Source of the DNA: Eledone cirrhosa
Taxonomy: Eukaryota
Length of the DNA stretch: 64,000 bases
Reading direction: 5' to 3'
NCBI GenBank assembly: GCA_964016885.1
Contig: CAXHJY010001213.1
Span: forward strand, 11,312-75,311
The translations under genes and the position numbers were made by a program. The notes under the pieces are model-generated. The model made no database searches. It saw only the letters and a program-made list of their open reading frames with translations, and had not been told where the DNA came from. Positions 2,475-62,323 of the stretch are shown here, one piece after another. The first letter of the stretch is position 1. Each line of letters starts with the position of its first letter.

Positions 2475-5400
2475 GATAGCAACTAACAGTGCTGCGATCG
2501 AATGTGGCTTTTTAGCCCAGCCAATGATCTAAAATGTCTTGCACAGAGTCGGCAACCAAAACATTTACTGGGAATAGTCGGCTGTGGTTGGAGTTCGTGT
2601 ACTTTTGCATGTCGCTTGAGTCCTCCTGCTGATTTACATTCTCTACCACATGTTTGGCAAGCATGATGAGTAGCATCTCCAACAGCAGCCTGGTAGTCAA
2701 CCACTGGTCTTACTTTATGACTGCGAAGATGACTTTCGAGTCCAGCTTTGCTTAGGCAGAGTCTCGCACAGACGCTGCATGTCAGAAACATAGGAGGACC
2801 CTCGCCGTCTGGAAGTGCAACAGCAATACCCTTCCTCACGTCCCGCTTTACTTTCTCGTGTGCGATTCGAGATGCCTCAAAGGCAACTTTTCCCTCATAT
2901 ACAGTCTTTCTCCATTTATTACGATCAGCAGCAATATTTTCCCATGTATCAGCAGAGATGTTAGCGTCTTTCAGAGAGGCCTTCAAGGAATCCTTATACC
3001 TCTTTTTTGGTTTATGTGGCGGTCGTTTTCCTTTAACCAACTCTCCATAGAAGAGTTGTTTTGGTATTCTAGAATCCTTCATCCTGGCAAGGTGACCACT
3101 CCAACGGAGTCGCTGCTTAAGCACAAGAGCTTCTATACTGTCACACATAGAGCTTTCCAAAATCTCGACATCACTGATGTGGTCCCTCCAGCGAACGCCA
3201 TGTATCCGTCTGAGACACATCTGATGGAAACGCTCCAATTGCTTAAGGTGGCGTCGATATGTGACCCAGGTCTCGCAGGCATAAAGAAGACAAGAGAGTA
3301 CACATGCCCTGTACACCTTTACCTTTGTCCTCCTGCATATGTCTCGCCGACCCCAGAGTCGCCTTTCTAGCTTTCCGAAAGCATCACTTGCTTTCCTAAT
3401 CCTAAGTGAGATCTCACTGTCAAGGTTGCCGTATCGATTGACAGTGCTTCCCAGGTAGACAAACTGATCAACCACTCCAAGTCGTTTGCCATACACATAG
3501 ATGTTTGGTTCAGTGTACTGCCTACCAGGTGCAGGTTGGTACATGACGACGGTTTTCTTGAGACTGACAGTCAAACCCAGGGCAGTGCAAGCGTCAGAAA
3601 ATACATTCAAAATGTGCTGCATATCACTCTCTGTGTGCGCTACAAGATCGCAATCATCTGCATACAAGAGGTCTCTTATGACTGATGTAAATACTTTTGT
3701 CTTCGCAGCAAAGCGCCTGATGTTAAATATGCTGCCTGAGGTTCGATATCGGATGTAAACACCATGCTCGCAATTCCTGAATGCAATACAGAAAACCATT
3801 GCAAAGTATATGGCAAACAGGGTCGGTGCTGGAATATCCCCCTGTTTCACTCCATTTTTTACTGAGATAGGCTCCGACATGCTACCTCCGACATTAACCC
3901 AAGCCTTCATGTCGTCATGGAAAGACCTAACTAAAGCAAGGAACTTATCAGGGCAACCAAGTTTCTGGAGAACCTTCCATAATGCATCTCTGTTGACAGT
4001 ATCGAAAGCCTTTGTCAGATCGACAAAAACCTGATACAGATCCAAGCCCTGTTCAATGCACTTCTCCTGGAGCTGTCTAGCTGAGAAGATCATATCAGTA
4101 GTGCCGCGTCCAACACGAAAACCAGATTGACTTTCAGGAAGGACACAATCTGCAATGTGTGTCAGCAGACGGTCCAGAAGCACCCTACATAAAACTTTCC
4201 CCACGACAGAAAGCAATGATATACCTCTGTAGTTCCCACAATCATTCCTGTTACCCTTTCCCTTGTACAAGACCACCATTACTGCATCTCTCCAGTCCTC
4301 AGGCACGGATTCATTAGCCCATATCCTTCCAAACAGAGAGTGAAGATGTTGCAGGAGTCTCTCACCACCATATTGTAGGAGCTCAGCATGTATGCCATCC
4401 ATACCTGGAGATCTTCCACTGTTCAGCTTCGAAATAGCCACTGCAACCTCCACAAGTGTCGGAGGTTCTGCGAGAGCTACTTTCACAGGACTTTCCGGAA
4501 TGAGATTGAGGAAATCTTCACTGACGACAGACGGCTGATTCAAAAGATCATCAAAGTGCTCTCGCCACCTTCGTAGAATTCCCTGTGAGTCACGAAGAAG
4601 TTCTTTGCCATCCTTGCTGCGAATCGGTGTCACCAGAGAAGAAGACGGTCCATAAACCTCACGCAAGAGACTGTACAACAGCTTTGTGTTATTGCAATCA
4701 GACGCAGTTTGTATCTCACCAGCCTTCTCACTCCACCACTGATCCTTCATCTGAGAAAGACTCCGCCTAACACGTGATTTTACATCCCTGAGCTCCTCAT
4801 GCAACGTATTCCTCTCCTGTGGTCTTGCCGTCAAGTAGCGTGACAGAGCGCGCCTCTTATCAGCCAACAAGTCATCTATATGCACATCCTTCTCATCAAA
4901 CCAGTCCTGATGTTTTCTCTGCACCAATCCCAGAACACGTCTGCCTACATCATAAACCGACTTTTTAAGAGTCGGCCAATCCTCACCAAGATCTGCAGCC
5001 TGCATCTCTTCTTCCAATGTCCTCTTCACATTTTTATCCTTAAGACGAGCAGCATTCAATCTTTTGGGCAGGGCAACACCAGGAGCCCGGATTTTACGTT
5101 TGGTGATTAGATTCACTTTTGCGCGTACCAGGCGGTGGTCCGTCCAGCACTCAGCTCCACGAAGAACACGAACACACTGCACATCCTGTCTGTCACGCAT
5201 CCTGACTAGGACGTAGTCCAAAAGATGCCATTCCTTAGATGCAGGATGCATCCATGTGGTCTTGAATTTGTTCTTTTGTTGGAACATGGTGCTGGTAACA
5301 CACAGATCCAGCTCCTCACACATCTGCAGCAAGAGCATACCATTGCTGTTACACTTTCCCACCCCATGCCTTCCGATTACATTCCATGTGTTAAAATCCC

Positions 5401-6067
5401 TACCCACTCTAGCATTAAAGTCACCAAGCACGATGACTTTGTCTGCCTGAGGGATATTTCTTAAAACACCTTTCAAGGCATGGTAAAAGGACAGTTTTTC
5501 TTCATCGACAGAATTCATAGTTGGAGCATACACACTCACCAGGGTAGCATATCTTCCCTTGTCCAGCGGAACTCTCATGGACATAAGACGCTCACTAATC
5601 CCCACTGGGAATTCTTCCAATTTATTCACCAGTACAGTCTTAACAGCAAATCCCACCCCAGCCTCTCTTCTGGTTCCTTCATCTCTTCCTTTCCAGAAGA
5701 ATGTATATTCTCCACAAAATTCCGTAAGATGACCATCTCCAGCTAACCTCGTCTCAGACAAAGCCACGATGTCAAGATCGTAACGTCGAAGCTCCTTCGC
5801 AACAAGAGCGGTCCTTCGTTCAGGACGCTCCAAAGAATCCCTGTCAAGCAGCGTCCGTACGTTCCAGCAGCCAAGACTAAATGCCCTGTTTGGCTCTATT
5901 ACAATGGCACGATGACGGGCGGGCCCAGGTTGTGATAACTTGGGGCCCCTGCCCTTATTGCCAATGATCTCTTTTGTTCCAGAACCCAAATTGGCAATTA
6001 TCTCGTTTACATTGTTCTGGAACATCATTGAATTGGAAAAAAAAAAAAAAAAAAAAAAGTAATAATA

Positions 6068-6102
<35 letters not shown>

Positions 6103-9004: not shown

Positions 9005-9400
9005 ATTAACATTTAGAATTTAATATTCTATCATACTATTTCATTATAATACCATTATATATTTTAAAGGATTGTAAATAAAACGAGTAAATCAGACAAA
9101 GTTGGAATTCCTCTTATTAATATATATATATATATATACATACATATATATATATATATATATACATACATATATATATATATATATATACATATATATA
9201 CATGTAGATAAATCTACCAAAAGTTTACGGTAGTGTCCAATCCGTATGAAGAACTCAATGTAATCCGGATATCATGGAAAGAAGAGATGCATTCAAAAAT
9301 CACTTTCGGTGAAAGATAAACGGAATACAGAATCAAGATAAAATATTAAAAAAATAATGAATAAAACAATGAAACAGTTCCTTATATTAAAAAAAAAAAG

Positions 9401-9553
9401 TTCATTATTTAACGATCGTTTCTAGGACATATATGTGTTAGAATTGGCATGCATATTCAACAGATCTATGTACAAAATTATACAAAATTATGCAAACTAT
9501 CAAATAGAATATACATACCAACACATACATATGCCGTCTTCAGAAATAATGAA
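9401..9553 (-). ncRNA. Type I hammerhead with long stem II (paralogue of 1781-1934)
   Basis: Minus strand reads TTCATTATTT CTGAAGA ...long hairpin... GAAA CGATCG TT AAATAATGAA. The core and stems I and III are identical to the 1781 copy while the flanks diverge. Confidence 0.85.
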
Positions 9554-9947
9554 ATATATTTATTGATAATAACAACAATTCAAAATTACAGGTCTGTTTG
9601 GGAACAGAGTTCAAATAGACCAATGAAATACACAAAAATATATCAAGAAAATACAGTTAGGTGTGTGTATATATGTAAGTAACTTCGTCCAAAGATATGC
9701 ATAAAAATGTATGTTCACATGCATACGCATGTCGAAAAAATGTATGTAAATACAAAAATTCAGGGCTAATGTCTCTGTATGTTTATAATCTACAGACAAA
9801 ATACACATACGTATACATACATATATACACTCATATATACACACATATACATACATATATACACTCATATATACACACATATACATACATTCATACACAC
9901 ACACACGCATATACACATAAACATACACATACCCACGAACATACACA

Positions 9948-10020
<73 letters not shown>

Positions 10021-10250
10021 GTATATATTATTATTATAACTATATGGATATTGAGGCGCACACATAAATACTGCAACATATACTTACATCTAGATGCAGA
10101 ACTAAAAATAGGTAAAGGGAGTCAGTAATTACAGAGGGTGTCAGACAACAGCCTATTTATAAAAATGTATCTATAAATTTAGAAATAAAAAGAAATATAT
10201 TAAAAGAAATAAACAAGTAAAATATATACTCATACATAAAATACACACCG

Positions 10251-10325
<75 letters not shown>

Positions 10326-10728
10326 TATAGAGAGACATATACATATACATATATAAACATACACATACACACATACATATATATATACATGTACTCACAA
10401 CACACATATATATACACATATATGTACACACACATACACACATACATACACATACATATATATATATACACACATATATATACACATATATATATACACA
10501 CATATATATATACATACACGCACATATATATACACACACACACATACATATACGTATATATACATACACATACACATATACATGTATATATATACACATA
10601 CAACCCCACGCTCACACACAACTCAGACGTACATAAATATAGAGATATACATACACACATATATATATATATATAGATATATACATACATATAAATATAT
10701 ATACACACACATACATACACACACACAT

Positions 10729-10778
<50 letters not shown>

Positions 10779-11189
10779 ATAAATAAATACACACAGTCAG
10801 ACAATTATGCGCATATATACACATACATACACACATCTCTACAAATATATATACACATACACATACATACACACACATATATATACATATATATATATAC
10901 AATCATACACACTTATTTACATGCGCACATATGTATTTTTATACTCACATACAAACACCCAAACATACATACATACTTACATACACATACATACATCCAC
11001 GCTTACAAATACGAATAATTATAGGGGGGGGGGGAAGGGGATTAAAATTATTAGTGGGAAATAGTAAATATAGGTTTCAAGGAACATAGAATATTAATCT
11101 GCATTTAGATCATAATATGTGTTTACATAGTAGTTTCAGTATTAGGAAATGTAAGAAAGAAGGCAAAATTATGCATTTTAATATAAGTA

Positions 11190-12085
11190 GACTATTAATT
11201 ATAGGTTAACTAAATTAAAAATAGTTAATATATTGATTTCTAAGGTGTATACTACTTAGGTTTATAATATTTAAAGCGGAATTTTGAAGTTAAACAGTAG
11301 TAGAGTATTAATTATAGCATAACTAAATTAAAAATATTAACATTATGGTATCAATTTTAGGAAATGAATTTAGTAATAGGGAAAACCAAATCAAGTATTT
11401 CATCGGTAGTAGCATATAAATTATAGGTTAACTAAACTAAAAATTATATATTAATTTCTATAGTATATGTTAATTAGGTTTATAATAATTAAAGCAGATT
11501 TTGTATTTTATCTATAGTAGAATATAATTATAGGTTAACAAAAATTAAAATTAATCTATATATTTATTTGTAAAGAATATATTAATTAGGTATATATTTA
11601 AAAGTTTTTCTCAGTTTATGATTACATGATATTCTGCAATCCATCTGTATTAGAATTTTAATTTTAAGCTAACTAAATTAAAATTATAGGTTAATTAAAT
11701 TAAAATTAATTTATAAATTAATTTCTAAATTGTACATTAATTAGGTTTATAATATTAAAAAGTATTTCTCTGTTATTGATTACACGATATTTTGTTATAT
11801 TTCATCTGTAAAGGAATTTTAATAAAAGGTTAAATAAACTAAAATTAATCTATAAATTAATTTCCAAAGTATATATTAATTATGTTAATAATATTTAAAA
11901 GTTTTTCACAATTTATGATTACACAATATTTTTTTAATCTCATCTGTAGTAGAATTTTAATTAAATTAAAGTTATAGGTTAACTACATTTAAATTAAATT
12001 ATATATTAATTTCTAAAATATATATTATTAATTAGGTTTATAATATTTAAATGTTTTTCTCAGTTTATGATTACACGATATAATT
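11190..12085 (-). repeat. Degenerate tandem repeats (about 110-150 bp) of the PLE ORF 3' end
   Basis: Recurring blocks TAATTAGGTTTATAATATTTAAA..TTTTCTCAGTTTATGATTACA and TTATAGGTTAACTAAATTAAAA match the last codons ([15 protein letters not shown]) of the adjacent ORF. Confidence 0.75.
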
Positions 12086-12760
12086 AATTCCTGTCGCTTA
12101 TTTAATAGGATATCCTTAGATTTCATTATTTCAAATAGTTCTTGGGAACACAATCTACATTCATTTCTATTATTTTGATAAGGGGTGGCTCTTTTGAGCA
12201 CACTCCAGGTCATATCATATTCTATATTCTTATTTCTATAACTATTAATTTTTTCTGCTAGAGATGTTGTATTAGCCAGTGCGGCATTTTTAAAAAAACT
12301 ATGTTTGTGGGTATTAAACCTTACCTTAAAATTGTTAGAAGTAGCTCCGATATATGAGCAAATAGAATCTTTAGTTTTAACTTTACATTTATAAACTATG
12401 TTGTTAACAAGACAATTTCCTTTTAATGGGCAGTTTGCTTTGTTTCTACAGTTACAACCTTTCGTTAATTCTGTATTTGAGGAGATATTATGGTTAGTTT
12501 GATGTATTGGTGGTATACTTATGGTTTTTTTACATTTATATGCATTATAGGCACTTATATTTTGTTTTATGTTTTTGGTTGTTGAGTATGAGAATTTAAC
12601 TGTTGATCTATTTAAGATTTGATGGTATTTGTGGTTTGGCGGGAAGTTTTTCTCTAGGATATAAACAAATTTTTTAGCAATATTATCCTTAATTTGTAAA
12701 TTAAATGGAGCATTATACCAAGTAACTCGTCTATTACGGTTTCTATGTTGTTTATTATTT
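12028..12760 (-). CDS. Penelope-like (Naiad-type) linker plus GIY-YIG endonuclease, 5'-truncated
   Basis: [41 protein letters not shown]...[31 protein letters not shown]. Homologous to 61274-62323. The N-terminus in the ORF track is a microsatellite artefact. Confidence 0.9.
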
Positions 12761-12823
12761 TTATAGGTTATACATACATATATATATATACATATATATA
12801 TACATATATATATATATACATAC

Positions 12824-12861
<38 letters not shown>

Positions 12862-12957
12862 CTATATATACATATATATATATACATACATATATATACA
12901 TATATATATATATACATATATATACATATATATATACATACATATATATATATATAT

Positions 12958-12988
<31 letters not shown>

Positions 12989-13055
12989 CATATATATACA
13001 TATATATATACATACATATATATATATATATACATACATATATATACATATATAT

Positions 13056-13096
<41 letters not shown>

Positions 13097-13113
13097 CATA
13101 TATATATATATAT

Positions 13114-13168
<55 letters not shown>

Positions 13169-13170
13169 CA

Positions 13171-15035
13171 TATAGACATAGAATATTCGAAAATATTCTG
13201 TATGTTTATAATAAACATTTTGAAGACCTAATCGCTATAGAATAGAATACGTCACGTATTACAATTAGATTCTCGATAAAAGCAAGGGAAGTAATCTACG
13301 CGTTTCATTCTCGTTAGAAATCATCAGGACTACATATCCAGTGCTTTTATCGAGAATGACACAGCTAGAGACTTATAGAATACTTAGCTGTGTACAGGAA
13401 CTGGTTTGAAAGAGCGGTTGCCGGTCCGGCAGAAATTAGAAATTGGAATAAATGCTCTGAAATAGCGATATATATGTGAATATAGACATAGAATATTCGA
13501 AAATATTCTGTATGTTTATAATAAACATTTTGAAGACCTAATCGCTATAGAATAGAATACGTCACGTATTACAATTAGATTCTCGATAAAAGCAAGGGAA
13601 GTAATCTACGCGTTTCATTCTCGTTAGAAATCATCAGGACTACATATCCAGTGCTTTTATCGAGAATGACACAGCTAGAGACTTATAGAATACTTAGCTG
13701 TGTACAGGAACTGGTTTGAAAGAGCGGTTGCCGGTCCGGCAGAAATTAGAAATTGGAATAAATGCTCTGAAATAGCGATATATATGTGAATATAGACATA
13801 GAATATTCGAAAATATTCTGTATGTTTATAATAAACATTTTGAAGACCTAATCGCTATAGAATAGAATACGTCACGTATTACAATTAGATTCTCGATAAA
13901 AGCAAGGGAAGTAATCTACGCGTTTCATTCTCGTTAGAAATCATCAGGACTACATATCCAGTGCTTTTATCGAGAATGACACAGCTAGAGACTTATAGAA
14001 TACTTAGCTGTGTACAGGAACTGGTTTGAAAGAGCGGTTGCCGGTCCGGCAGAAATTAGAAATTGGAATAAATGCTCTGAAATAGCGATATATATGTGAA
14101 TATAGACATAGAATATTCGAAAATATTCTGTATGTTTATAATAAACATTTTGAAGACCTAATCGCTATAGAATAGAATACGTCACGTATTACAATTAGAT
14201 TCTCGATAAAAGCAAGGGAAGTAATCTACGCGTTTCATTCTCGTTAGAAATCATCAGGACTACATATCCAGTGCTTTTATCGAGAATGACACAGCTAGAG
14301 ACTTATAGAATACTTAGCTGTGTACAGGAACTGGTTTGAAAGAGCGGTTGCCGGTCCGGCAGAAATTAGAAATTGGAATAAATGCTCTGAAATAGCGATA
14401 TATATGTGAATATAGACATAGAATATTCGAAAATATTCTGTATGTTTATAATAAACATTTTGAAGACCTAATCGCTATAGAATAGAATACGTCACGTATT
14501 ACAATTAGATTCTCGATAAAAGCAAGGGAAGTAATCTACGCGTTTCATTCTCGTTAGAAATCATCAGGACTACATATCCAGTGCTTTTATCGAGAATGAC
14601 ACAGCTAGAGACTTATAGAATACTTAGCTGTGTACAGGAACTGGTTTGAAAGAGCGGTTGCCGGTCCGGCAGAAATTAGAAATTGGAATAAATGCTCTGA
14701 AATAGCGATATATATGTGAATATAGACATAGAATATTCGAAAATATTCTGTATGTTTATAATAAACATTTTGAAGACCTAATCGCTATAGAATAGAATAC
14801 GTCACGTATTACAATTAGATTCTCGATAAAAGCAAGGGAAGTAATCTACGCGTTTCATTCTCGTTAGAAATCATCAGGACTACATATCCAGTGCTTTTAT
14901 CGAGAATGACACAGCTAGAGACTTATAGAATACTTAGCTGTGTACAGGAACTGGTTTGAAAGAGCGGTTGCCGGTCCGGCAGAAATTAGAAATTGGAATA
15001 AATGCTCTGAAATAGCGATATATATGTGAATATAG
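13171..15035 (-). repeat. Tandem array of 6 x 310-bp units, each with a minus-strand hammerhead
   Basis: TATAGACATAGAATATTCG recurs at 13171, 13481, 13791, 14101, 14411 and 14721. The first HHR is at 13269-13357 (-). Confidence 0.97.
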
Positions 15036-17931
15036 ATTAGGTCTTCAAAATGTTTATTATAAACATACAGAATATTTTCGAATATTCTATGTCTATATTC
15101 ACATATATATCGCTATTTCAGAGCATTTATTCCAATTTCTAATTTCTGCCGGACCGGCAACCGCTCTTTCAAACCAGTTCCTGTACACAGCTAAGTATTC
15201 TATAAGTCTCTAGCTGTGTCATTCTCGATAAAAGCACTGGATATGTAGTCCTGATGATTTCTAACGAGAATGAAACGCGTAGATTACTTCCCTTGCTTTT
15301 ATCGAGAATCTAATTGTAATACGTGACGTATTCTATTCTATAGCGATTAGGTCTTCAAAATGTTTATTATAAACATACAGAATATTTTCGAATATTCTAT
15401 GTCTATATTCACATATATATCGCTATTTCAGAGCATTTATTCCAATTTCTAATTTCTGCCGGACCGGCAACCGCTCTTTCAAACCAGTTCCTGTACACAG
15501 CTAAGTATTCTATAAGTCTCTAGCTGTGTCATTCTCGATAAAAGCACTGGATATGTAGTCCTGATGATTTCTAACGAGAATGAAACGCGTAGATTACTTC
15601 CCTTGCTTTTATCGAGAATCTAATTGTAATACGTGACGTATTCTATTCTATAGCGATTAGGTCTTCAAAATGTTTATTATAAACATACAGAATATTTTCG
15701 AATATTCTATGTCTATATTCACATATATATCGCTATTTCAGAGCATTTATTCCAATTTCTAATTTCTGCCGGACCGGCAACCGCTCTTTCAAACCAGTTC
15801 CTGTACACAGCTAAGTATTCTATAAGTCTCTAGCTGTGTCATTCTCGATAAAAGCACTGGATATGTAGTCCTGATGATTTCTAACGAGAATGAAACGCGT
15901 AGATTACTTCCCTTGCTTTTATCGAGAATCTAATTGTAATACGTGACGTATTCTATTCTATAGCGATTAGGTCTTCAAAATGTTTATTATAAACATACAG
16001 AATATTTTCGAATATTCTATGTCTATATTCACATATATATCGCTATTTCAGAGCATTTATTCCAATTTCTAATTTCTGCCGGACCGGCAACCGCTCTTTC
16101 AAACCAGTTCCTGTACACAGCTAAGTATTCTATAAGTCTCTAGCTGTGTCATTCTCGATAAAAGCACTGGATATGTAGTCCTGATGATTTCTAACGAGAA
16201 TGAAACGCGTAGATTACTTCCCTTGCTTTTATCGAGAATCTAATTGTAATACGTGACGTATTCTATTCTATAGCGATTAGGTCTTCAAAATGTTTATTAT
16301 AAACATACAGAATATTTTCGAATATTCTATGTCTATATTCACATATATATCGCTATTTCAGAGCATTTATTCCAATTTCTAATTTCTGCCGGACCGGCAA
16401 CCGCTCTTTCAAACCAGTTCCTGTACACAGCTAAGTATTCTATAAGTCTCTAGCTGTGTCATTCTCGATAAAAGCACTGGATATGTAGTCCTGATGATTT
16501 CTAACGAGAATGAAACGCGTAGATTACTTCCCTTGCTTTTATCGAGAATCTAATTGTAATACGTGACGTATTCTATTCTATAGCGATTAGGTCTTCAAAA
16601 TGTTTATTATAAACATACAGAATATTTTCGAATATTCTATGTCTATATTCACATATATATCGCTATTTCAGAGCATTTATTCCAATTTCTAATTTCTGCC
16701 GGACCGGCAACCGCTCTTTCAAACCAGTTCCTGTACACAGCTAAGTATTCTATAAGTCTCTAGCTGTGTCATTCTCGATAAAAGCACTGGATATGTAGTC
16801 CTGATGATTTCTAACGAGAATGAAACGCGTAGATTACTTCCCTTGCTTTTATCGAGAATCTAATTGTAATACGTGACGTATTCTATTCTATAGCGATTAG
16901 GTCTTCAAAATGTTTATTATAAACATACAGAATATTTTCGAATATTCTATGTCTATATTCACATATATATCGCTATTTCAGAGCATTTATTCCAATTTCT
17001 AATTTCTGCCGGACCGGCAACCGCTCTTTCAAACCAGTTCCTGTACACAGCTAAGTATTCTATAAGTCTCTAGCTGTGTCATTCTCGATAAAAGCACTGG
17101 ATATGTAGTCCTGATGATTTCTAACGAGAATGAAACGCGTAGATTACTTCCCTTGCTTTTATCGAGAATCTAATTGTAATACGTGACGTATTCTATTCTA
17201 TAGCGATTAGGTCTTCAAAATGTTTATTATAAACATACAGAATATTTTCGAATATTCTATGTCTATATTCACATATATATCGCTATTTCAGAGCATTTAT
17301 TCCAATTTCTAATTTCTGCCGGACCGGCAACCGCTCTTTCAAACCAGTTCCTGTACACAGCTAAGTATTCTATAAGTCTCTAGCTGTGTCATTCTCGATA
17401 AAAGCACTGGATATGTAGTCCTGATGATTTCTAACGAGAATGAAACGCGTAGATTACTTCCCTTGCTTTTATCGAGAATCTAATTGTAATACGTGACGTA
17501 TTCTATTCTATAGCGATTAGGTCTTCAAAATGTTTATTATAAACATACAGAATATTTTCGAATATTCTATGTCTATATTCACATATATATCGCTATTTCA
17601 GAGCATTTATTCCAATTTCTAATTTCTGCCGGACCGGCAACCGCTCTTTCAAACCAGTTCCTGTACACAGCTAAGTATTCTATAAGTCTCTAGCTGTGTC
17701 ATTCTCGATAAAAGCACTGGATATGTAGTCCTGATGATTTCTAACGAGAATGAAACGCGTAGATTACTTCCCTTGCTTTTATCGAGAATCTAATTGTAAT
17801 ACGTGACGTATTCTATTCTATAGCGATTAGGTCTTCAAAATGTTTATTATAAACATACAGAATATTTTCGAATATTCTATGTCTATATTCACATATATAT
17901 CGCTATTTCAGAGCATTTATTCCAATTTCTA
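15035..17931 (+). repeat. Tandem array of 9.3 x the same 310-bp unit, inverted, each with a plus-strand hammerhead
   Basis: GATTAGGTCTTC recurs at 15035, 15345 and every 310 bp to 17825. It is the reverse complement of the left array and ends in (TA)n. Confidence 0.97.
15221..15309 (+). ncRNA. Type I hammerhead of the 310-bp unit (representative of 15 copies)
   Basis: Distal stem I ATTCTCGATAAAAGCA/TGCTTTTATCGAGAAT (16 bp), internal loop, proximal stem I GTAGTC/GATTAC, CTGATGA (15251-15257), stem II TTCT-AACG-AGAA, GAAA (15272-15275), palindromic CGCG, cleavage after GTA (15281). Confidence 0.92.
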
Positions 17932-18035
17932 TATACATATATATATACATACATATATATATACATACATATATATATACATACATATATATATACATAC
18001 ATATATATATACATACATATATATATACATACATA

Positions 18036-18074
<39 letters not shown>

Positions 18075-18120
18075 GCATACATACATATATATATATACAT
18101 ATATATATATGCATACATAC

Positions 18121-18168
<48 letters not shown>

Positions 18169-18178
18169 GCATACATAC

Positions 18179-18244
<66 letters not shown>

Positions 18245-18245
<1 letters not shown>

Positions 18246-19764: not shown

Positions 19765-20730
19765 CAGGTTTAGCAAATAATGAAAAAGTTTCAAAATAAA
19801 TTTTAAAAAATTGACCTATTGGCATATATATATATATAAAGAGAGAGAGAGCGAGAGAGGAATTGTAAGGAAATAACTCCCATACATATTTTTTTCTATA
19901 ATTCTGAAGAATAGAAAAAAAAAAAAAAATTGGGTAAATGCTGTGGCTGATAATGCCTTTGAATTAATTTCTGTAAAAGATATTAATATAAAAAACAAAC
20001 AAACAAATCTTATAGATTCTATTTTTTTGAAAATTATAGTTGTTTGGGGTTGTTTCAGACCACAACCCATACAATAAAGTCCTTGCTAGGTCTGACCCAG
20101 ATGCGTTATGGTTAATAGTTTGTTCCAGGCTTGGCCAACAAACATGGAGTGGCTAATTTGATTCGTATCTCTTCAGTTCTTTTAGCAATACAGTTTGTTA
20201 AACGTATTATTTGTTTCCCATACGAATCTTCAGCAACCCTCCACCTGATCTTTTGTAATAGTCTTTTACATAGATTGAGCCTTTTACATTGAAGCTACTA
20301 TAGACTAACTTGGGATCCCATAGTGGCCGATGGCATCTTCTTTTTCCGTCTATTAAGGGTCTTCCCCCTATTTTATAAGCTACTTCATCGCATCTCTACG
20401 GATGAGAACACCATCCTTTACATTATTAATTCAATAAAAATTATATATTGGTTTTGGTTTAAATTAAAACGCAGAAAAATAATCATATATTATATTTGGC
20501 TTCAATGAAATAGAAACAGAAAAAGTCCAAGCAATGATACATAAATCCTTACTGTTATACATTAGTTAATTGAAAGTACATTTAAATGTATCATTTATGA
20601 CTTGAGTAAAAAAAAAAAATGAACTTGATAACTTGTTAAGTCCTGGCGAAGATTCGTAACCGTCATTTGCTGGCCTTGTGCCTAACGTAGAAACAATTAT
20701 TGATTTAATTATATTATTTTTTTTATTTAA

Positions 20731-20950
20731 AGGCGGTGGATTGGCAGTATTGGTAGAGCGTCGCACAACAATCTTAGCGACATAGAGTTACAGCCCTTTA
20801 TGTTCTGAGTTCAAATCCCGCCGAGGTTAGCTTTGCCTTTAATCATTTACAGAGTCGATAAAATAAAGCACCAGTAATGTAGTGGTGTTGATTTAATCGA
20901 CTTTCCCTCCCTTAAAATTGTTGGCCTTGTGTCTAAATAGAAACAATTAT
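20731..20950 (+). mobile_element. tRNA-derived SINE, family 1 (octopus-type)
   Basis: A-box-like TGGCAGTATTGG, B-box GAGTTCAAATCC, core CTTTGCCTTT..GTCGATAAAATAAAG, tail GGCCTTGTG..TAGAAAC. More than 15 further copies are in the window. Confidence 0.85.
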
Positions 20951-20985
20951 TTTTTATTTAAGTGCAATAAATAAAATAATATACA

Positions 20986-21160
20986 TAATTGTTTCTACTT
21001 TTGGCACAAGGCCAGCAATTATTCCAGTGCATTACCGTACTTTATTTTATCGATCCCGTAAGGATGAAAGGCAAAGTTAACCTCGAAGGGGACTTGAACT
21101 CAGATCGTAATTCTATGCTGCAAAGCATGGCGTCCGACCCTCTAACGATACTGCCAATAA
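20986..21160 (-). mobile_element. SINE family 1 copy
   Basis: GTTTCTACTTTTGGCACAAGGCCAGCAA..AGGATGAAAGGCAAAGTTAACCTCG..TTGAACTCAG. Confidence 0.85.
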
Positions 21161-21884
21161 TAATAATTTGTTCTATTTCACAGAAAAAAATAATATATTT
21201 AAATGAATTTATAGATGAGATTTCAATACCTGTCGGGACCGAGGAAAGAATGAAATAATTAGTTTTAAAATTTCAGCTGAGTAAAACTTTATATACAATT
21301 ATTTTATTTAGATGAGGTGTCTCAAACATGTTGCCGGCAAACTACTTTTCTATGGCCCACAGCAGAACAATTTTCGCGACAATTTAAGGAAAATGTTCAA
21401 CAGAAATTTTGTCCTCCTATATATTATATTAATTCATGTATCTGTAAGATATATTTTTGATCGCCAAGTGAACTTGAATAAACACGCAGTTCACATAATT
21501 TTAACAGACCATTTGCACATGCCTTGCCCAAACAGTTTGGAGGTCTCGGTTTGAGTAAATAACATCTCTGTCTCTACCTGCTTTCTTTCCTCCATCCACG
21601 TTTGCTCCCTTTTAGTGAACATCCTCTCCTTTCCAACATGGACTAGTTCCACCAGGGAGATGGAGGAAGTTTTAATTCAGTGGATAGAGCTGGGTTTGTC
21701 AGTTCCTGATACTGACAACGATAGACGGAAGCAGAGAGTATGGGCAATCTTCGTTCGAGCGAAACATTTAACTTTAAACTATCATAAGGTTTAGTTGGTA
21801 TTTATCTTTCAACATGCCTTTAGGCTCTTTATTTTAGATGAAAAAGAATGAGATGCTATGATTTATTTTTTAGGATCTCAATAA

Positions 21885-22430
21885 ATAATTGTTTCTACTT
21901 TATTTAGCACAACGCCAGCAATCTGAAGAGGAGGGGAAAGTCGATTAAATCGACTCCAGTACTTACTGGTGCTTTACCCCGTAAGGATGAAAGGCAAAGT
22001 TAACCTCGACGGGATTTGACTCAATAAATAATTGTTTCTACTTTTGGCACAAGGCCTGCAAATTTTACAGTGCATTACTGGTACTTTATTTTATCGACCG
22101 CGTAAGGATGAAAGGCAAAGTTAACCTCGACGGGATATGAAAAATCAACGCAAGTAAAGTTTCATCGACCCCATCCTTACGGGGTCGATAAAATAAAACA
22201 CCAGTAATACACTGGGATAATTGCTGGCCTTGTGCCAAAAGTAAAAACAATTATTTATTTGACTCAATAAATAATTGTTTCTACTTTTGGCACAAGGCCA
22301 GCAATTACCCAGTACATTACTGGTACTTTATTTTATCGACCCGTAAGGATGAAAGGCAAAGTTAACCTCGGCGGGATTTGAACTCAGATCGTAACTACGC
22401 TGGAAGACGTAACTTGCGTTGATTTTTCAT
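21885..22430. mobile_element. Cluster of four partial SINE family 1 copies, partly arranged as a fold-back
   Basis: Two minus copies, then a plus and a minus copy flanked by inverted GAAAAATCAACGCAAGT / ACTTGCGTTGATTTTTC. Confidence 0.8.
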
Positions 22431-24749: not shown

Positions 24750-25625
24750 GTCTATTAATTTGTAAGGTGAGCAAATGGGGTCCCACGTGCTGGCATCCCC
24801 ACATCCCCTGCGGACAAGATGAAGAAGGTATTTCTCCGGCGGTTGGTAAGGGAGATGCGCTGGAAGAGCCATTCCAACTCGCGAGGCTCACACCTGCGGC
24901 TGGCCATCTCAGCACCTATGGTGGTGAATAGGGAGGTAGCCCTAGGGCCAAGGACACCAGAAGTCTCCACTGCCAAGGGCACGACCGCGAACCTATCGGA
25001 GAGTGACCGGTACTTGGAGAGTTTGGCCTCCTCAGCCCGACGTGCAGCAGTACCTGGGTTAGTCGCAGACTGCACCAGCTTGCGGCTCGAGAAAGTGTCG
25101 CTGCAACTGGCATCCCAGACGAGCGATTTGCCACCGCGGAACGGGAAGATGGTCATACCGTCTGGCCTTTTGCCATCCCTCGGTCGAGCCCCACCGACTC
25201 GAGCTGGGAGGGGAAGTCTGCAGCGTCCAAGCCATGCTTATTGACCCCGTTGAGTGCAGCATGACGTAGAAAGCGGCCGGCACTGTGGTGACAGGAAAGC
25301 GAGTGGAAGCCGAAAGAGTCCACGGTGGATCCACAGCGACATTTATGTGGCTTGCAGATCCGGAGTCCAAACCTCAAGAAAACGCCGATGCGCAAGGCAT
25401 GGAGCAAGGCATGGAGCCAGGCACCACTGTGGGGTTTGGAGGCAGCGCGAAAACAGGCAAGGCGGTGCTGGTCGAGCTGGCGCGTGAGCCTGTCTGAGGC
25501 CAGGCTGCACTGGATGGCATCCCATACGCGTTGGGGGAGAAGGAGGAGGGACGTCTACTGGGGTAAGTCCCAGCCTGTCCCACGTCTCATAGGCGACCTC
25601 ACGCTCCCTGAACACAGAGGGTTCT
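24750..25625 (-). pseudogene. CRE-like non-LTR retrotransposon 3' fragment (zinc knuckle plus restriction-like endonuclease)
   Basis: CRCGSTVDSFGFHSLSC..RH, WDASCSDT, AEEAKLSKY, VPLAVETSG. Frameshifted paralogue of 48284-49324. Confidence 0.9.
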
Positions 25626-47780: not shown

Positions 47781-49324
47781 AGGCCCCTCTCAACGTTTGG
47801 TATCTGGATGATGCTACGTTGGGCGGGCCCGTACGGACGGTCTGCAAAGACCTTCAATCGGTGATTCCTACCCTGGCGGGAATCGGCCTCCAGGTCAACT
47901 CGGCCAAGTCGGAGGTGGTGAACGTCAGCCTCGATGCTGTGAGCTTTGCAGCCTCCGTCTTGGACGTGCGGTCCATTCTCCGCCAGGTTCAGGTGACTCC
48001 CCAAAGAGGATGTCCTCATCCTCGGGTCACCGATCCATCCGCCGGCCATCCGCTCCACCATCAGGTCGAGGCTTCAACAACTCCAGACTCTCACGAGCCG
48101 ACTGGGCTTGATTGACGGCCACCCAGCTCCCTTTCTGCTGAGGAACTGCTTCGCCATGCCGAAGCTCTTCTAAACACTCCGCAGCGCTCCATGCTACACC
48201 CAGACATCTCTCCTCGCTGACCTCGATACTTGTATCCGAACAGCAGCCGAGGGGATATGCAACGTCAAGTTTGACGACATAGGGTGGCAACAGGCCACTT
48301 TACCGGTCAGGTATGGCGGCCTAGGCCTCCGGTCCCCGATCTCCTAGCTTTGCCGGCGTATCTTTCGTCGGTAACCTCGTGCCGCGTCCTCGTCAGCAGG
48401 GTTCTTCAAAACACAACAGAACCCTCTGTGTTCAGAGAACGTGAGGCCGCCTGTGAGACGTGGGACCGGTTGGAACTTAGCCCAGTAGACGTCCCTTCTC
48501 CTTCTCCCCCTGTTGACGTCAAGTCCCCCCAACGCACTTGGGATGCCATCCAGAGCAGCCTGGCCTCAGACAGGCTCACGCGCCAGCTCGACCAGCACCG
48601 CCTTGCTTGTTTTCGTGCGGCCTCCAAACCCCACAGTGGTGCCTGGCTCCATGCTCTGCCCTCCTTCTCCACTGGCACGCAGCTAGACAACCATAGCCTG
48701 CGAATCGGCATTTCCCTGAGGCTCGGCCTCCGGATCTGCCAGCCACACCAATGTCGCTGCGGTTCCACCGTGGACTCTTTCGGCCTCCACCCGCTTTCCT
48801 GTCGCCACAGTGCCGGCCACATTCCACGCCATACTGCCCTCAACGAGGTCATTAAGCATGGCTTGGACGCTGCAGGCTTCCCTTCCCAGCTCGAGCCGGT
48901 GGGGCTGGATCGAGGGGACGGCAAAAGGCCAGATGGCATGACCATCTTCCCGTTCCGAGGTGGCAAACCCCTCGTCTGGGATGCCACTTGCACCGACACT
49001 TTCTGCAGCCGCAATCTGGTGCAGTCTGCGACTGACCCAGGTTCTGCTGCACGTCGGGCTGAGGGGGCCAAACTCCTCAAATACCGGTCGCCCGCCGACA
49101 GGTTTGCGGTCGTTCCCCTGGCAGTGGAAACTTCTGGTGTCCTCAGCCCCAGGGCTACCTCCTTACTCACTAACATAGGCGCGGAGCTGGCCAGCCGTAG
49201 GTGTGAGCCCCGCGAGTTGGAGTGGCTTTTCCAGCGCGTCTCCCTTGCCGTCCTCCGGGGAAACGCCTTCTCCATTCTGTCCGCCGGGGCTGTGGGTGGG
49301 CCCCATCGCGTACCATTACATTAG
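47781..49324 (+). pseudogene. 5'-truncated CRE-like non-LTR retrotransposon (RT C-terminus, zinc knuckle, RLE endonuclease)
   Basis: NVWYLDDATLGG, GLQVNSAKSE, HSGAWLHALP, CRCG..HPLSC, RH, KRPDG, WDATC, VPLAVETSG; frameshifts and a stop between 48000 and 48340. Confidence 0.92.
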
Positions 49325-59460: not shown

Positions 59461-59561
59461 GTGGTGGTGGTGGTGGTGGTGGTGGTGGAGATCAGACCTG
59501 AGAGTACGTGAATTATTTAAGGACGTAAGAATGAAAACTAAAGTTTAAATATTTATTTATT

Positions 59562-62323
59562 ATGGCTAAGCCTTGTTCCCTTGTGGTCCTACGTGCGTAC
59601 TCACGAGGCAAGACTGGTGATCCTGTGAGTGCGCAGGTGAAAGTTTACTTGCCTTTATCTCTGAAAAATATTCCCACCCCCTCTAAGAATACTTACCTAA
59701 AACTACTGATAGCTAGTGTTAACTCCTTTGTAAAATGGATTAGATGGCGTGCGTTTCACTACGATAGTAATAAGAATAGGAAGGACCCCAGGAATAGAAC
59801 ACATTTTAATAAATACGGCTTCAAAACTTATAAGAGCCCACCACACAACATACTATTAGATAGTTTCGAAGGTGACTTACTCTCTCTGGTCAAAAATGTT
59901 AGGTTTAGGCTAAATATTAGACATAGAAACAATAGTAATTTTGATAAATTCCAGTCCAGACTTAAAAATATTGTTAAGGGTTTCGGTGAGAATAAGTCCA
60001 TTCTGGTCCCGGCAGATAAGACTAAGAATCTATACTCCATGGACTATAGTACATACCGCGATTTTATTTATAAAGAGTTATTTAGAAACTATAAAAAACT
60101 ACGCTTGAGAATTTGAACCACATCAATAGTGAGGGCCTTAGAATAGTCTCTGACCTCGGACTCGATAAGTATACCCAGCCATATTACCCTCGATAACCGA
60201 GATTCACACTTAAGGACCATAAGGTTGATTTTATTAGTAACCCCTCAGTTAGACTTATCTGTCCTTCTAAGTCGGATATAACCATTATCAGTAAAAAAAT
60301 CCTTGACCTTATTATACCAGATGTTAGGGATAAGGTTAATTTTAACCTATGGGGGAACACTAGGGAAGTTATAGATTGGTTCTCTGGGATTAATAGACTT
60401 GAATCTAATAAGTTTATCCAATTCGATATTGATGCCTACTACACATCAATTTCACCCATCCTCCTCAATAAAGCCTTAATGTTGGCCATGAGAGTGTCCA
60501 GCCTTACACGATCGCAGGTAGATATTATACTAGCAGCCCGTAAAACTATTATTAAATTTGAGGACACTTTTTGGACCCGTAAAAACACGCCCAATAATTT
60601 CGACGTTACAATGGGTTCGAGTGATTCGGCCCAGGTTACTGATCTTGTTGGGTTGTTCCTCCTTAATGAACTATACGCTACCTTCCCGCACCTTATAGGC
60701 GGACTATATCGTGATGATGCATTGTTTGTAATTAACTCTAGTACCAACAATGTAGAACTTAATAAGAAGAAGCTTTATAAGTTTTTTAAAAGCTACAACC
60801 TTTCAATCACGATAGATAGAAATGATAGAGCGGTTAACTTTTTAGATGTGACTTTGGACTTGGCCACTAATAGTTTTAAACCCTTCCATAAGCCTAATGA
60901 AATCCTTTCTTATGTTAGCCCCAATTCTAACCACCCTAAGTCTATGATAAACTCTATAATTAAGGGCGTTTCTAATAGGATTTCCACACTATCTAAGGAC
61001 ATAGGAACTTTTAATGAACATGCGGAGTACTACAATAATGCCCTAGCAAATTCAGGTCACTCTAGTAAAATAAATTATAATAATAGTAACTTTAGAAAGT
61101 CTCCGCTTACTCTTAATAATAATAACATTATATCACATAACATCGCCATGAATGGGAGTAGCAAACATAGTAACCGTAGAACTTATATAGGAGTATCTGA
61201 ACCCACCCATAAGTTATCCCACCGGACTCGTAATAGCAAATATAATACCTCTAGGAGATAAGTCGAGCCCCCTGTGCGCTCACGCATTGGAGTTGGTTTG
61301 GCTGGATCTTATTCTAGTAATGTTGCTCCTACTGATCCTATCATTGGCCTTAATCCTCTTGTAGGGATTCCGGACAACAGCGGATCTACTGGAGGTAGAA
61401 ACTATAATAGGCATAACGAAATTATGGCTGATTCTATGAATGTGGCCTCAACTATTCCCGATAGTAACCCTAGTCTCGACGGTGGGACATTTGATAGAGG
61501 TAGGGTCGATAAGAATAAAAATAAAAATAGAAGGCGATTAAATACTTATTTCAACCCGCCATATAACCAGGATGTATCAACTAATATCCCTAGGTCTTTC
61601 TTCACTATCTTAGAGAAAAATTTCCCCCCTTCTCACAAATACCATGGTATTTTTAATAAAAATGTTATTAAACTCTCATTCTCTACCACCCCTAATATTA
61701 GTTCTCATTTAGCTAGCACTAATAATAGGAAAATTAGGGATGGATTCTCCTCTCTACATACTACTAGTCTGAATGCATCGGACAATGCTTTACCACCAGA
61801 ACAGTCCTTATCTAATAGAGGTCCTACGTGTAATACATCACCACTCGAGCCAACCAATAACACCCGGAAGTGCAATTGTAGAGTGAGTGCTAACTGCCCT
61901 CTAAACGGTAACTGCCTTTCTAAGAACATTGTCTACGCTTGCGAGGTTATAACTAATTCCTCTAAAAGAACGTATATAGGATCTACTTCAAACACTTTTA
62001 AGACTAGGTTTAACTCTCATATCTCTAACTTCAAACATGTTAGGTTTAAGAATTCTACCTCTCTAGCGCATTATATCTGGGATCTTAAGGGAGCTTATAT
62101 ACCATATAGCCTTAACTGGTGTTTAGTAGCACGATCTAACCACCTTTCTGCACATAGTAAGTTTTGTAATCTCTGTATACTTGAGACACACTCTATTATT
62201 TTCTCTAGCGTACCCTTACTGAATAGAAAGTCTGAGATATTCTCTTCTTGCCCCCATGCCATTTCTAATTCTTATTTTTATTATAAACCCAAATGTTCTA
62301 GTAGTACAAATTGTACCCATTAG
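59562..62323 (+). pseudogene. Near full-length Penelope-like element (Naiad-type) ORF: RT plus C-terminal GIY-YIG, with three lesions
   Basis: SLKNIPTP, VPADKTKNLY, TLKDHK, RLICPSKS, QFDIDAYYTSI, FDVTMGSSDSA, GLYRDDAL, NFLDVTLDL, SNHP, FNPPYN, CNCR..CPLNGNCL, IVY..YIG, CNLC..E, LNRKSE. Frameshift in an A6 run near 60098; in-frame TAA at 60194 and 61259. Confidence 0.92.

Follow-up and report, generated by a model that had tools for sequence, protein, structure and literature searches.

What does a plain tandem repeat with the fold of an RNA circle represent, and how did it reach its place in the genome? The question is raised by a stretch of 64,000 nt of Eledone cirrhosa DNA (assembly GCA_964016885.1, contig CAXHJY010001213.1, positions 11,312-75,311, forward strand), referred to below as the window. 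Two arrays of a 310-nt unit lie there head to head between (TA)n-type microsatellites. With a probability of about 0.9, the unit is a non-LTR (long terminal repeat) retrozyme mobilized by a Penelope-type enzyme. Probably, the form that is copied is a self-cleaving RNA circle, on which a Penelope-like reverse transcriptase (RT)-endonuclease primes twice.

The arrays are plain tandems, non-coding and without LTR architecture. Every full unit in the window is identical to the others and contains one hammerhead core, with a GC content of ~0.34 and a longest stop-free frame of 59 codons. Monomer positions are numbered 1-310 from the predicted cut (window position 15282 is 1; the monomer is 15282-15591, plus strand). 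The type I hammerhead is called from its core motif, its stems and their covariation. CUGANGA, GAAA and the UH element are in place, together with three stems and an open stem I, and cleavage is predicted after 15281 (GUA). Stem II has a U.U at its base. Stem III is one pair capped by a palindromic CGCG, and pair and palindrome together (ACGCGU) are self-complementary. In one group of relatives (family 3 and kin), the core pair C3-G8 is replaced by U3-A8. Such an exchange is what a working hammerhead should show. Rescue at C3/G8 has been reported (PMC11167929). The opposite strand of the unit contains no valid hammerhead core; a look-alike there has U3 facing G8.

The genome (3.0 Gb, 1796 contigs) holds 4226 exact copies of a 31-nt core. 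Fifty-two insertions of family 1, to which the window array belongs, were read in the window and along contig C1 (50 stretches). Selection was by the core in 11 cases and by end patterns in 40; five listed insertion ends lie outside this set. Forty-four insertions are two-armed, with the arms head to head, and 8 are single-armed, one of these beside an N gap. Wherever both outer ends are in view (42 insertions), one arm ends at a monomer site that we call A and the other at a second site, B. The pairing holds in 30/30 insertions that were chosen with no more than one end in sight; for the other 12, both ends were known beforehand. Sites A and B are ~35 nt apart, and the 30-40 bp tail at one end that is the signature of Penelope elements is found in 42/42. 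The target is (TA)n in all 11 loci picked regardless of their ends, the other 40 having been selected on a TA end. Genome-wide, plus-strand ends number 686 of A type and 711 of B type, which points to ~1,400 family-1 insertions.

Both arms carry one haplotype in 37 of 38 informative loci, as compared with 15% across loci, and 5 of 1531 arm-by-position cells are mixed. The 37 loci comprise 15 haplotypes, 10 of them seen once, each fixed in every unit. Exact resolution was obtained for 26 of the 44 junctions between arms. Microhomology of at least 2 nt is present in 15 of these 26 (18% expected by chance) and inserted bases in 6. Some junctions fall in the element's own stems, with long overlaps (loci L034, L045, L061, L068 and L076). 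The inner ends of the arms are at most 20 nt apart in 8/43 junctions, where ~6 are expected by chance. Stalling of the reverse transcriptase at hairpin 98-117, suggested by the first 11 loci, was not retained, since among 93 arms the inner ends depart only slightly from an even spread (chi-square p 0.03). Short-read contigs, too, contain joints where the strand switches, as well as TA tails at both sites; one of the samples behind them may be the source of the assembly. The unit is present in six sequencing runs of unrecorded kind (four studies, four organism labels). No RNA run is listed as containing it. In two of the six, the unit forms a single closed contig of 340 nt; a DNA array would give this as well, so that it says nothing on expression.

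An earlier note, made from the letters of the window, had described the unit as structured all the way round, repeat junction included, with a branched, viroid-like circular fold rather than the character of a neutral satellite. The six stems that it named are all present in the helix list. In circular mode, the folding energy of the cleaved monomer is -67.8 kcal/mol, whereas shuffled sequences average -48.3 +/- 4.0 (z -4.84; 0/100 as low); 60% of the monomer's bases are paired. The predicted circle is self-paired and leaves the ribozyme free, as retrozymes do. The structure is unevenly distributed. The hammerhead with its stem I extension reaches z -5.66 by itself (0/200 shuffles), whereas the 216 nt outside them reach -1.48 (9/120 shuffles), which is not clearly beyond shuffles. 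Among sub-domains, positions 57-145 give -3.08 (1/200), 147-246 give -1.2 (26/200) and 31-56 give -0.56 (57/200). The fold signal sits mainly in the hammerhead with the stem I extension and in domain 57-145; "all the way round" overstates the case. The opposite strand folds equally well (z -5.2) and the strand is therefore not identifiable from energy alone. As for the repeat junction, 15344/15345 only marks where the earlier note cut the unit, and biologically the junction lies at the predicted cleavage after 15281.

Stem I including its extension amounts to 25 bp. The ATAGCGAT/ATCGCTAT stem has a mean pair probability of 0.57, and an alternative fold of equal energy does without it. The hairpin described as UUCG-capped keeps its stem in relatives, but not its loop, which becomes GCCA, GCAA or ACAA. 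Like this cap, the ACACAGCTA and AATACGT stems turned out to be family-specific; in all, three stems besides the cap are not maintained pair by pair in the relatives. At 214-248, other families place a different hairpin round the same loop, and at 37-51 they fold a hairpin of their own, of differing sequence. The 3' strand of stem 59-66/138-145 falls between sites A and B.

Selection on the stems can be read from the relatives. A 16-mer common to all subfamilies has 24,855 matches in the genome. These matches come from all families, 1 and 2 included although the pattern had been designed to avoid them, and their listing serves as an unbiased sample. Families 1b, 3 and others were found in this listing, family 2 via a fragment beside one locus. 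Families 1b, 2 and 3 share 95%, 68% and 67% identity with family 1 and have circular z scores of -5.1, -7.2 and -6.9, computed on one real copy for family 1b and on majority sequences of 30 copies each for families 2 and 3. In an alignment of 18 real copies, which come from about seven related subfamilies and whose counts are not independent events, two-sided changes occur in 28 of the 74 family-1 pairs, against 20.0 +/- 2.0 in shuffled controls (0/500 as high). Paired cells make up 80.5% of the alignment, against 34-45% for slid partners. Covariation reaches 6/6 pairs in stem I and 4/5 in stem II.

Within family 1, a pair is broken by 1/20 array-fixed variants and by 32/76 single-unit variants (Fisher p 0.0013), bearing in mind that single-unit variants may contain sequencing errors, that hairpin 79-95 was added after the relatives had been examined and that locus L055 (family 1b-like) was excluded. 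Five of the seven array-fixed changes that keep a pair create G.U, on the plus strand only. The stems are genuine. Compensatory changes affect stem I, stem II and two body hairpins, and these changes, with the deficit of pair-breaking array-fixed variants, uphold the earlier note's claim that the unit is not a neutral satellite. Of the note's viroid-like circle, the shape is kept: a circular RNA with a branched fold is likely, as is common among animal non-LTR retrozymes (PMC7229834). The likeness stops at a core found on one strand and a spread by DNA insertion with Penelope-type ends.

Five of the eight array-fixed stem changes are A-to-G (monomer positions 2, 20, 92, 259 and 276; L065). A276G, in a UAG context, recurs on three different haplotypes, and A20G on two or more. 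One lead is that the RNA may have been edited from adenosine to inosine (A-to-I) ahead of reverse transcription, in keeping with the context preference of such editing; selection for G.U is the alternative. Our literature searches found no description of editing in retrozymes.

Table 1. Features of the window that bear on the 310-nt element. Positions are window coordinates; stem names and sites refer to monomer numbering.
Feature	Position	Strand	Description
Plus arm	15035-17931	+	9.35 copies of the 310-nt unit, all identical; runs into (TA)n at its outer (RNA 3') end, monomer 170 (site B)
Minus arm	13170-15036	-	6.02 units, plus-arm haplotype; outer (RNA 3') end at monomer 127 (site A), into (TA)n
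Head-to-head arm junction	15035-15036		Monomer positions 121 and 64; microhomology 2 nt
Left (TA)n-type microsatellite target	12769-13169
Right (TA)n-type microsatellite target	17930-18245
Type I hammerhead (predicted)	15245-15287	+	Stem I 15245-15250/15282-15287; core CUGAUGA 15251-15257; GAAA
Site A	15098-15110	+	Monomer 127-139; insertion-end class one, putative reverse-transcription start
Site B	15134-15143	+	Monomer 163-172; insertion-end class two, putative reverse-transcription start
Stem I extension	15221-15236/15294-15309	+	16 bp + 3-bp helix; closes monomer ends; pair probability 0.95
Stem I extension, whole	15221-15309	+	Two-sided change in 12/19 pairs; 93% of cells paired
Hairpin 98-117 (UUCG hairpin of the earlier note)	15069-15088	+	2/8 pairs covary; 98.6% paired; stem kept, loop free
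Hairpin 79-95	15050-15066	+	1/7 pairs covaries (U-A to C-G); 85.7% paired; found by RNAalifold unaided
Stem 59-66/138-145	15109-15116 (3' strand); partner 15340-15347	+	0/8 pairs covary; 98.1% paired; nearly invariant
Hairpin 176-188	15147-15159	+	No two-sided changes; 81.5% paired; weakly kept
Hairpin 214-248	15185-15219	+	Family-1 pairing; 50.8% paired on the alignment
Hairpin 37-51	15318-15332	+	32.4% paired in family-1 register; RNAalifold gives a 4-bp helix here
Penelope-like copy 1, broken	59535-62323	+	RT motifs followed by GIY-YIG (sub-threshold in Pfam, E 0.0012)
Penelope-like copy 2, 5'-truncated	9242-12777	-	Endonuclease part 12028-12777 abuts left TA tract

From this record we infer transcription, dimer-type cleavage, host ligation, a circular template, a Penelope-type enzyme and double priming. 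An array would be transcribed by read-through and cleaved after GUA, probably by double hammerheads between neighbouring units, because stem III is just one pair with a palindrome. Stem I, which the earlier note saw as holding the ends of the cleaved monomer together for ligation, does hold them in the model. Their closure would more likely fall to a host ligase of the RtcB type than to self-ligation, since in tested retrozymes self-ligation amounts to 1-3% and RtcB ligation to 30 to over 80% (PMC7229834). The presumed enzyme would nick both strands of (TA)n, and each DNA end would prime at one of the two observed end sites, ~35 nt apart. Both copies would then run several rounds on the same template, a putative circle, which would leave the single haplotype observed at each locus. 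Synthesis of the two cDNAs would end at varying positions, after which they would be joined head to head, in many cases via 2-5 nt of microhomology or the element's stems, as seen at the junctions. The invariant domain 57-170, which contains both start sites, is likely the binding site of the presumed enzyme.

The window contains two candidate sources of such an enzyme. We take both copies to be Penelope-like from their domain order and motifs, and from their terminal repeats. Young relatives are numerous in both families, and their open frames span 915 codons in the first and 828 in the second. The first, an autonomous family (L131-L140), has a hammerhead motif in its terminal repeat and inserts in (TA)n. 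Its two end sites are ~100 nt apart, an unusually long tail, and lie at opposite ends in 5/5 two-armed copies. In the second (L201-L212), no hammerhead was found in the terminal repeat and a single end site is seen among 11 ends; its 3' region contains an AT-rich tandem at 11395-12081. Four monomers compared with the two families by profile and local alignment gave no body match, at most the hammerhead core. Shuffles scored as high in 3-97 of 200 cases for the first family and in 38-181 of 200 for the second. Neither of the two families matches the retrozyme body, and no partner is therefore assigned. Dispersed retrozyme copies and Penelope-like elements occur together in this genome, as expected of a non-LTR retrozyme.

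Other hammerheads occur around these loci. A short hammerhead-bearing element, sometimes a small palindrome, lies near TA runs in L134, L135, L137, L203, L205, L206 and the L039 flank, with a stem II nearly identical to that of family 1. The family 1 ribozyme may have been acquired from such an element. More hammerhead-like motifs, of other families, are found in ordinary flanks (L037, L040, L044, L091, L144 and L145).

Several points weigh against a Penelope-mobilized retrozyme circle. The RNA, its cleavage and the circle are predictions from the genome sequence. Rfam at gathering score gave 0 matches in the window, to hammerhead models or others. The weak fold of the 216-nt body and the relatedness of the 18 aligned copies belong here too, as do the ~100-nt tail of the first Penelope-like family, the single end site of the second and the missing body match. 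At L065, one variant is in all units of one arm and in 2/6 of the other. Blocks of rare variants are repeated in L052, L053 and L050, which means later growth or homogenization as DNA. In families 2 and 3, ends fall at these two sites as well, but their pairing is looser, with A/B pairs in 11/13 and 15/24, and family 3 has 3 same-type end pairs. In the anole system, the enzyme does not need ribozyme cleavage and unprocessed RNA is its main template (PMC11167929). In Xenopus, 8/9 dimers stayed uncleaved in vitro (bioRxiv 10.64898/2026.07.22.740005).

Part of this would suit the main rival, in which Penelope-type double priming acts on a long uncleaved linear transcript of a uniform array, no circle is formed and arrays grow or homogenize as DNA. 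The family 1 hammerhead is weak on paper, unprocessed RNA is the main template of the anole enzyme in vitro, and the block duplications, with one variant in single units of both arms of L052, indicate DNA-level change or a multimer template. A linear multimer is nevertheless unlikely. Haplotypes private to one locus and fixed through all units (10 of the 15) would call for frequent one-unit bottlenecks. The two arms start at sites 35 nt from each other, though a multimer has these sites in each unit, and selection acts on stem I, which joins the ends of a monomer. The inverted arm could also arise by fold-back self-priming on one cDNA or antisense template instead of from two primers. Self-priming has been proposed for rotifer Penelope elements (PMC3846280), would likewise yield one haplotype per locus and agrees with the long-overlap junctions noted above, those placed within stems of the element. 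The near-chance number of closely spaced inner ends and the two fixed, different outer ends make it quite improbable.

Two further explanations carry still less weight. A neutral satellite, with DNA hairpins or assembly fold-backs and stems devoid of RNA function, would be in line with the equal folding of both strands, the body z of -1.5 and the Rfam result. It is already contradicted by covariation that includes the catalytic C3-G8 pair, by G.U-keeping changes on one strand only, by dispersed insertions with fixed ends and by joints that recur in short-read contigs, and it is very improbable. An endogenized viroid-like replicon that also copies RNA to RNA has the resemblance to Avsunviroidae in size, branched fold and hammerhead on its side, and RNA-RNA replication has been raised for mussel retrozymes (PMC7229834). 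The minus strand has no valid core and all the spread seen is DNA insertion with Penelope-type ends; of the explanations considered, we give this one the least chance.

Returning to the Penelope-mobilized circle, a more specific joint reading can be offered tentatively, as one that we hold to be more probably wrong than right in its entirety. Each insertion would be the footprint of one Penelope-type enzyme dimer on one RNA circle. The two subunits would use opposite strands for priming, each at a different fixed site, and both would travel round one and the same molecule. Family-1 arrays would be long because a dimer-only hammerhead cannot reopen the monomer circle, and the recurrent A-to-G stem changes would be A-to-I edits of the circle written into the genome. 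If true, a dimer on one circle would explain the Penelope tail and the inverted copy in one step.

Arm lengths differ between families. In family 1, 68/95 arms exceed 2.3 units, with a median of 3.9 and a longest of at least 22.5 (window 13170-17931, L031-L080). In families 2 and 3 (L082-L110, L161-L190), which have a stem III of 3-4 bp, arms reach at most 2.26 and 1.96 units. A ribozyme active only as a dimer may keep the circle shut and hence account for family-1 arm length. Family 1b has the same weak core yet short arms in three loci, which weighs against this account.

Elsewhere in the window, an open 1205-codon frame at 2483-6100 (minus strand), with AP (apurinic/apyrimidinic) endonuclease, RT and C2H2 fingers, looks like an intact non-LTR retrotransposon. 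A repeat present in several copies and both orientations at 20650-22420, and also in the L039 flank, looks like a short interspersed nuclear element (SINE). Related open frames of 349 codons (48275-49324, plus strand) and ~160 codons (24755-25244) are probably the 3' part of another mobile element; the 349-codon frame has no Pfam match.

The hammerhead viroids (Avsunviroidae) are comparable in size, with a branched fold, a hammerhead and possible double-hammerhead cleavage. Ribozymes in both polarities are absent from the Eledone unit, which has its core in one polarity only, is genome-encoded and spreads by reverse transcription. The closer likeness is with metazoan non-LTR retrozymes (coral, mussel, axolotl; newt satellite 2), which are built of 150-450 bp units in tandem, each containing a type I hammerhead, have a low GC content (<50%), lack an LTR or open reading frame (ORF) and are predicted to form a self-paired circle. 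PMC7229834 defines this class and describes circles in coral, mussel and axolotl as well as dimer dependence for a one-pair stem III. A one-pair stem III with a palindromic tetraloop is known from axolotl HHR_Amex1 and a U.U at the stem II base from HHR_Amex2 (PMC7229834). Unlike these retrozymes, the Eledone unit combines both weak features in one motif, while its relatives have a stem III of 3-4 bp. A structured circle is itself expected and ordinary for retrozymes. In the text of PMC7229834 consulted, there is no mention for non-LTR retrozymes of double arrays placed head to head, of A/B pairing of ends or of a (TA)n target. Our literature searches gave no description of two-armed retrozyme arrays, which supplementary figures may nonetheless show.

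The unit also shares traits with endonuclease-bearing Penelope-like elements, which leave an inverted 5'-truncated copy and a 30-40 bp tail, often one-ended, favour (TA)n (PMC8557442, PMC3846280, PMC11167929), have two reverse-transcription start sites and carry a hammerhead, theirs in the terminal repeat. The enzyme cuts and extends both strands, and the two start sites bound the tail (PMC11167929). Inverted copies, one-ended tails, (TA)n bias, the self-priming proposal and the hypothesis linking Penelope to retrozymes are treated in PMC8557442, PMC3846280, PMC7761336 and PMC11722881; PMC8557442 calls the origin of inverted copies and one-sided tails unresolved. Unlike Penelope-like elements, the Eledone element has no ORF and consists entirely of the 310-nt unit, in up to 22 or more copies per arm. 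In family 1, an A end is strictly paired with a B end; the anole study, by contrast, reports no start-site difference between strands (PMC11167929).

Copying of retrozyme circles by Penelope-like enzymes has so far been a proposal based on co-occurrence and sequence likeness. The young insertions of family 1, ~1,400 in number, strictly A/B-paired and uniform in haplotype at each locus, form a natural data set for this question and for that of the inverted copies and tails. With its start sites mapped, the 310-nt RNA also offers a template small enough to suit an in vitro test. No relative of the unit was found among the pseudo-LTRs (pLTRs) of the two Penelope-like families checked. Vertebrate retrozymes derived from pLTRs also co-occur with Penelope-like elements, whose enzyme they are proposed to use (bioRxiv 10.64898/2026.07.22.740005). 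There, the link is pLTR sequence similarity, local tandem growth is discussed, and "tail" is absent as a term. In Eledone, the link is the signature of the insertions. What is gained here is this insertion record, which links retrozymes as a class with the mechanism of Penelope elements and opens double priming on a single circle to testing.

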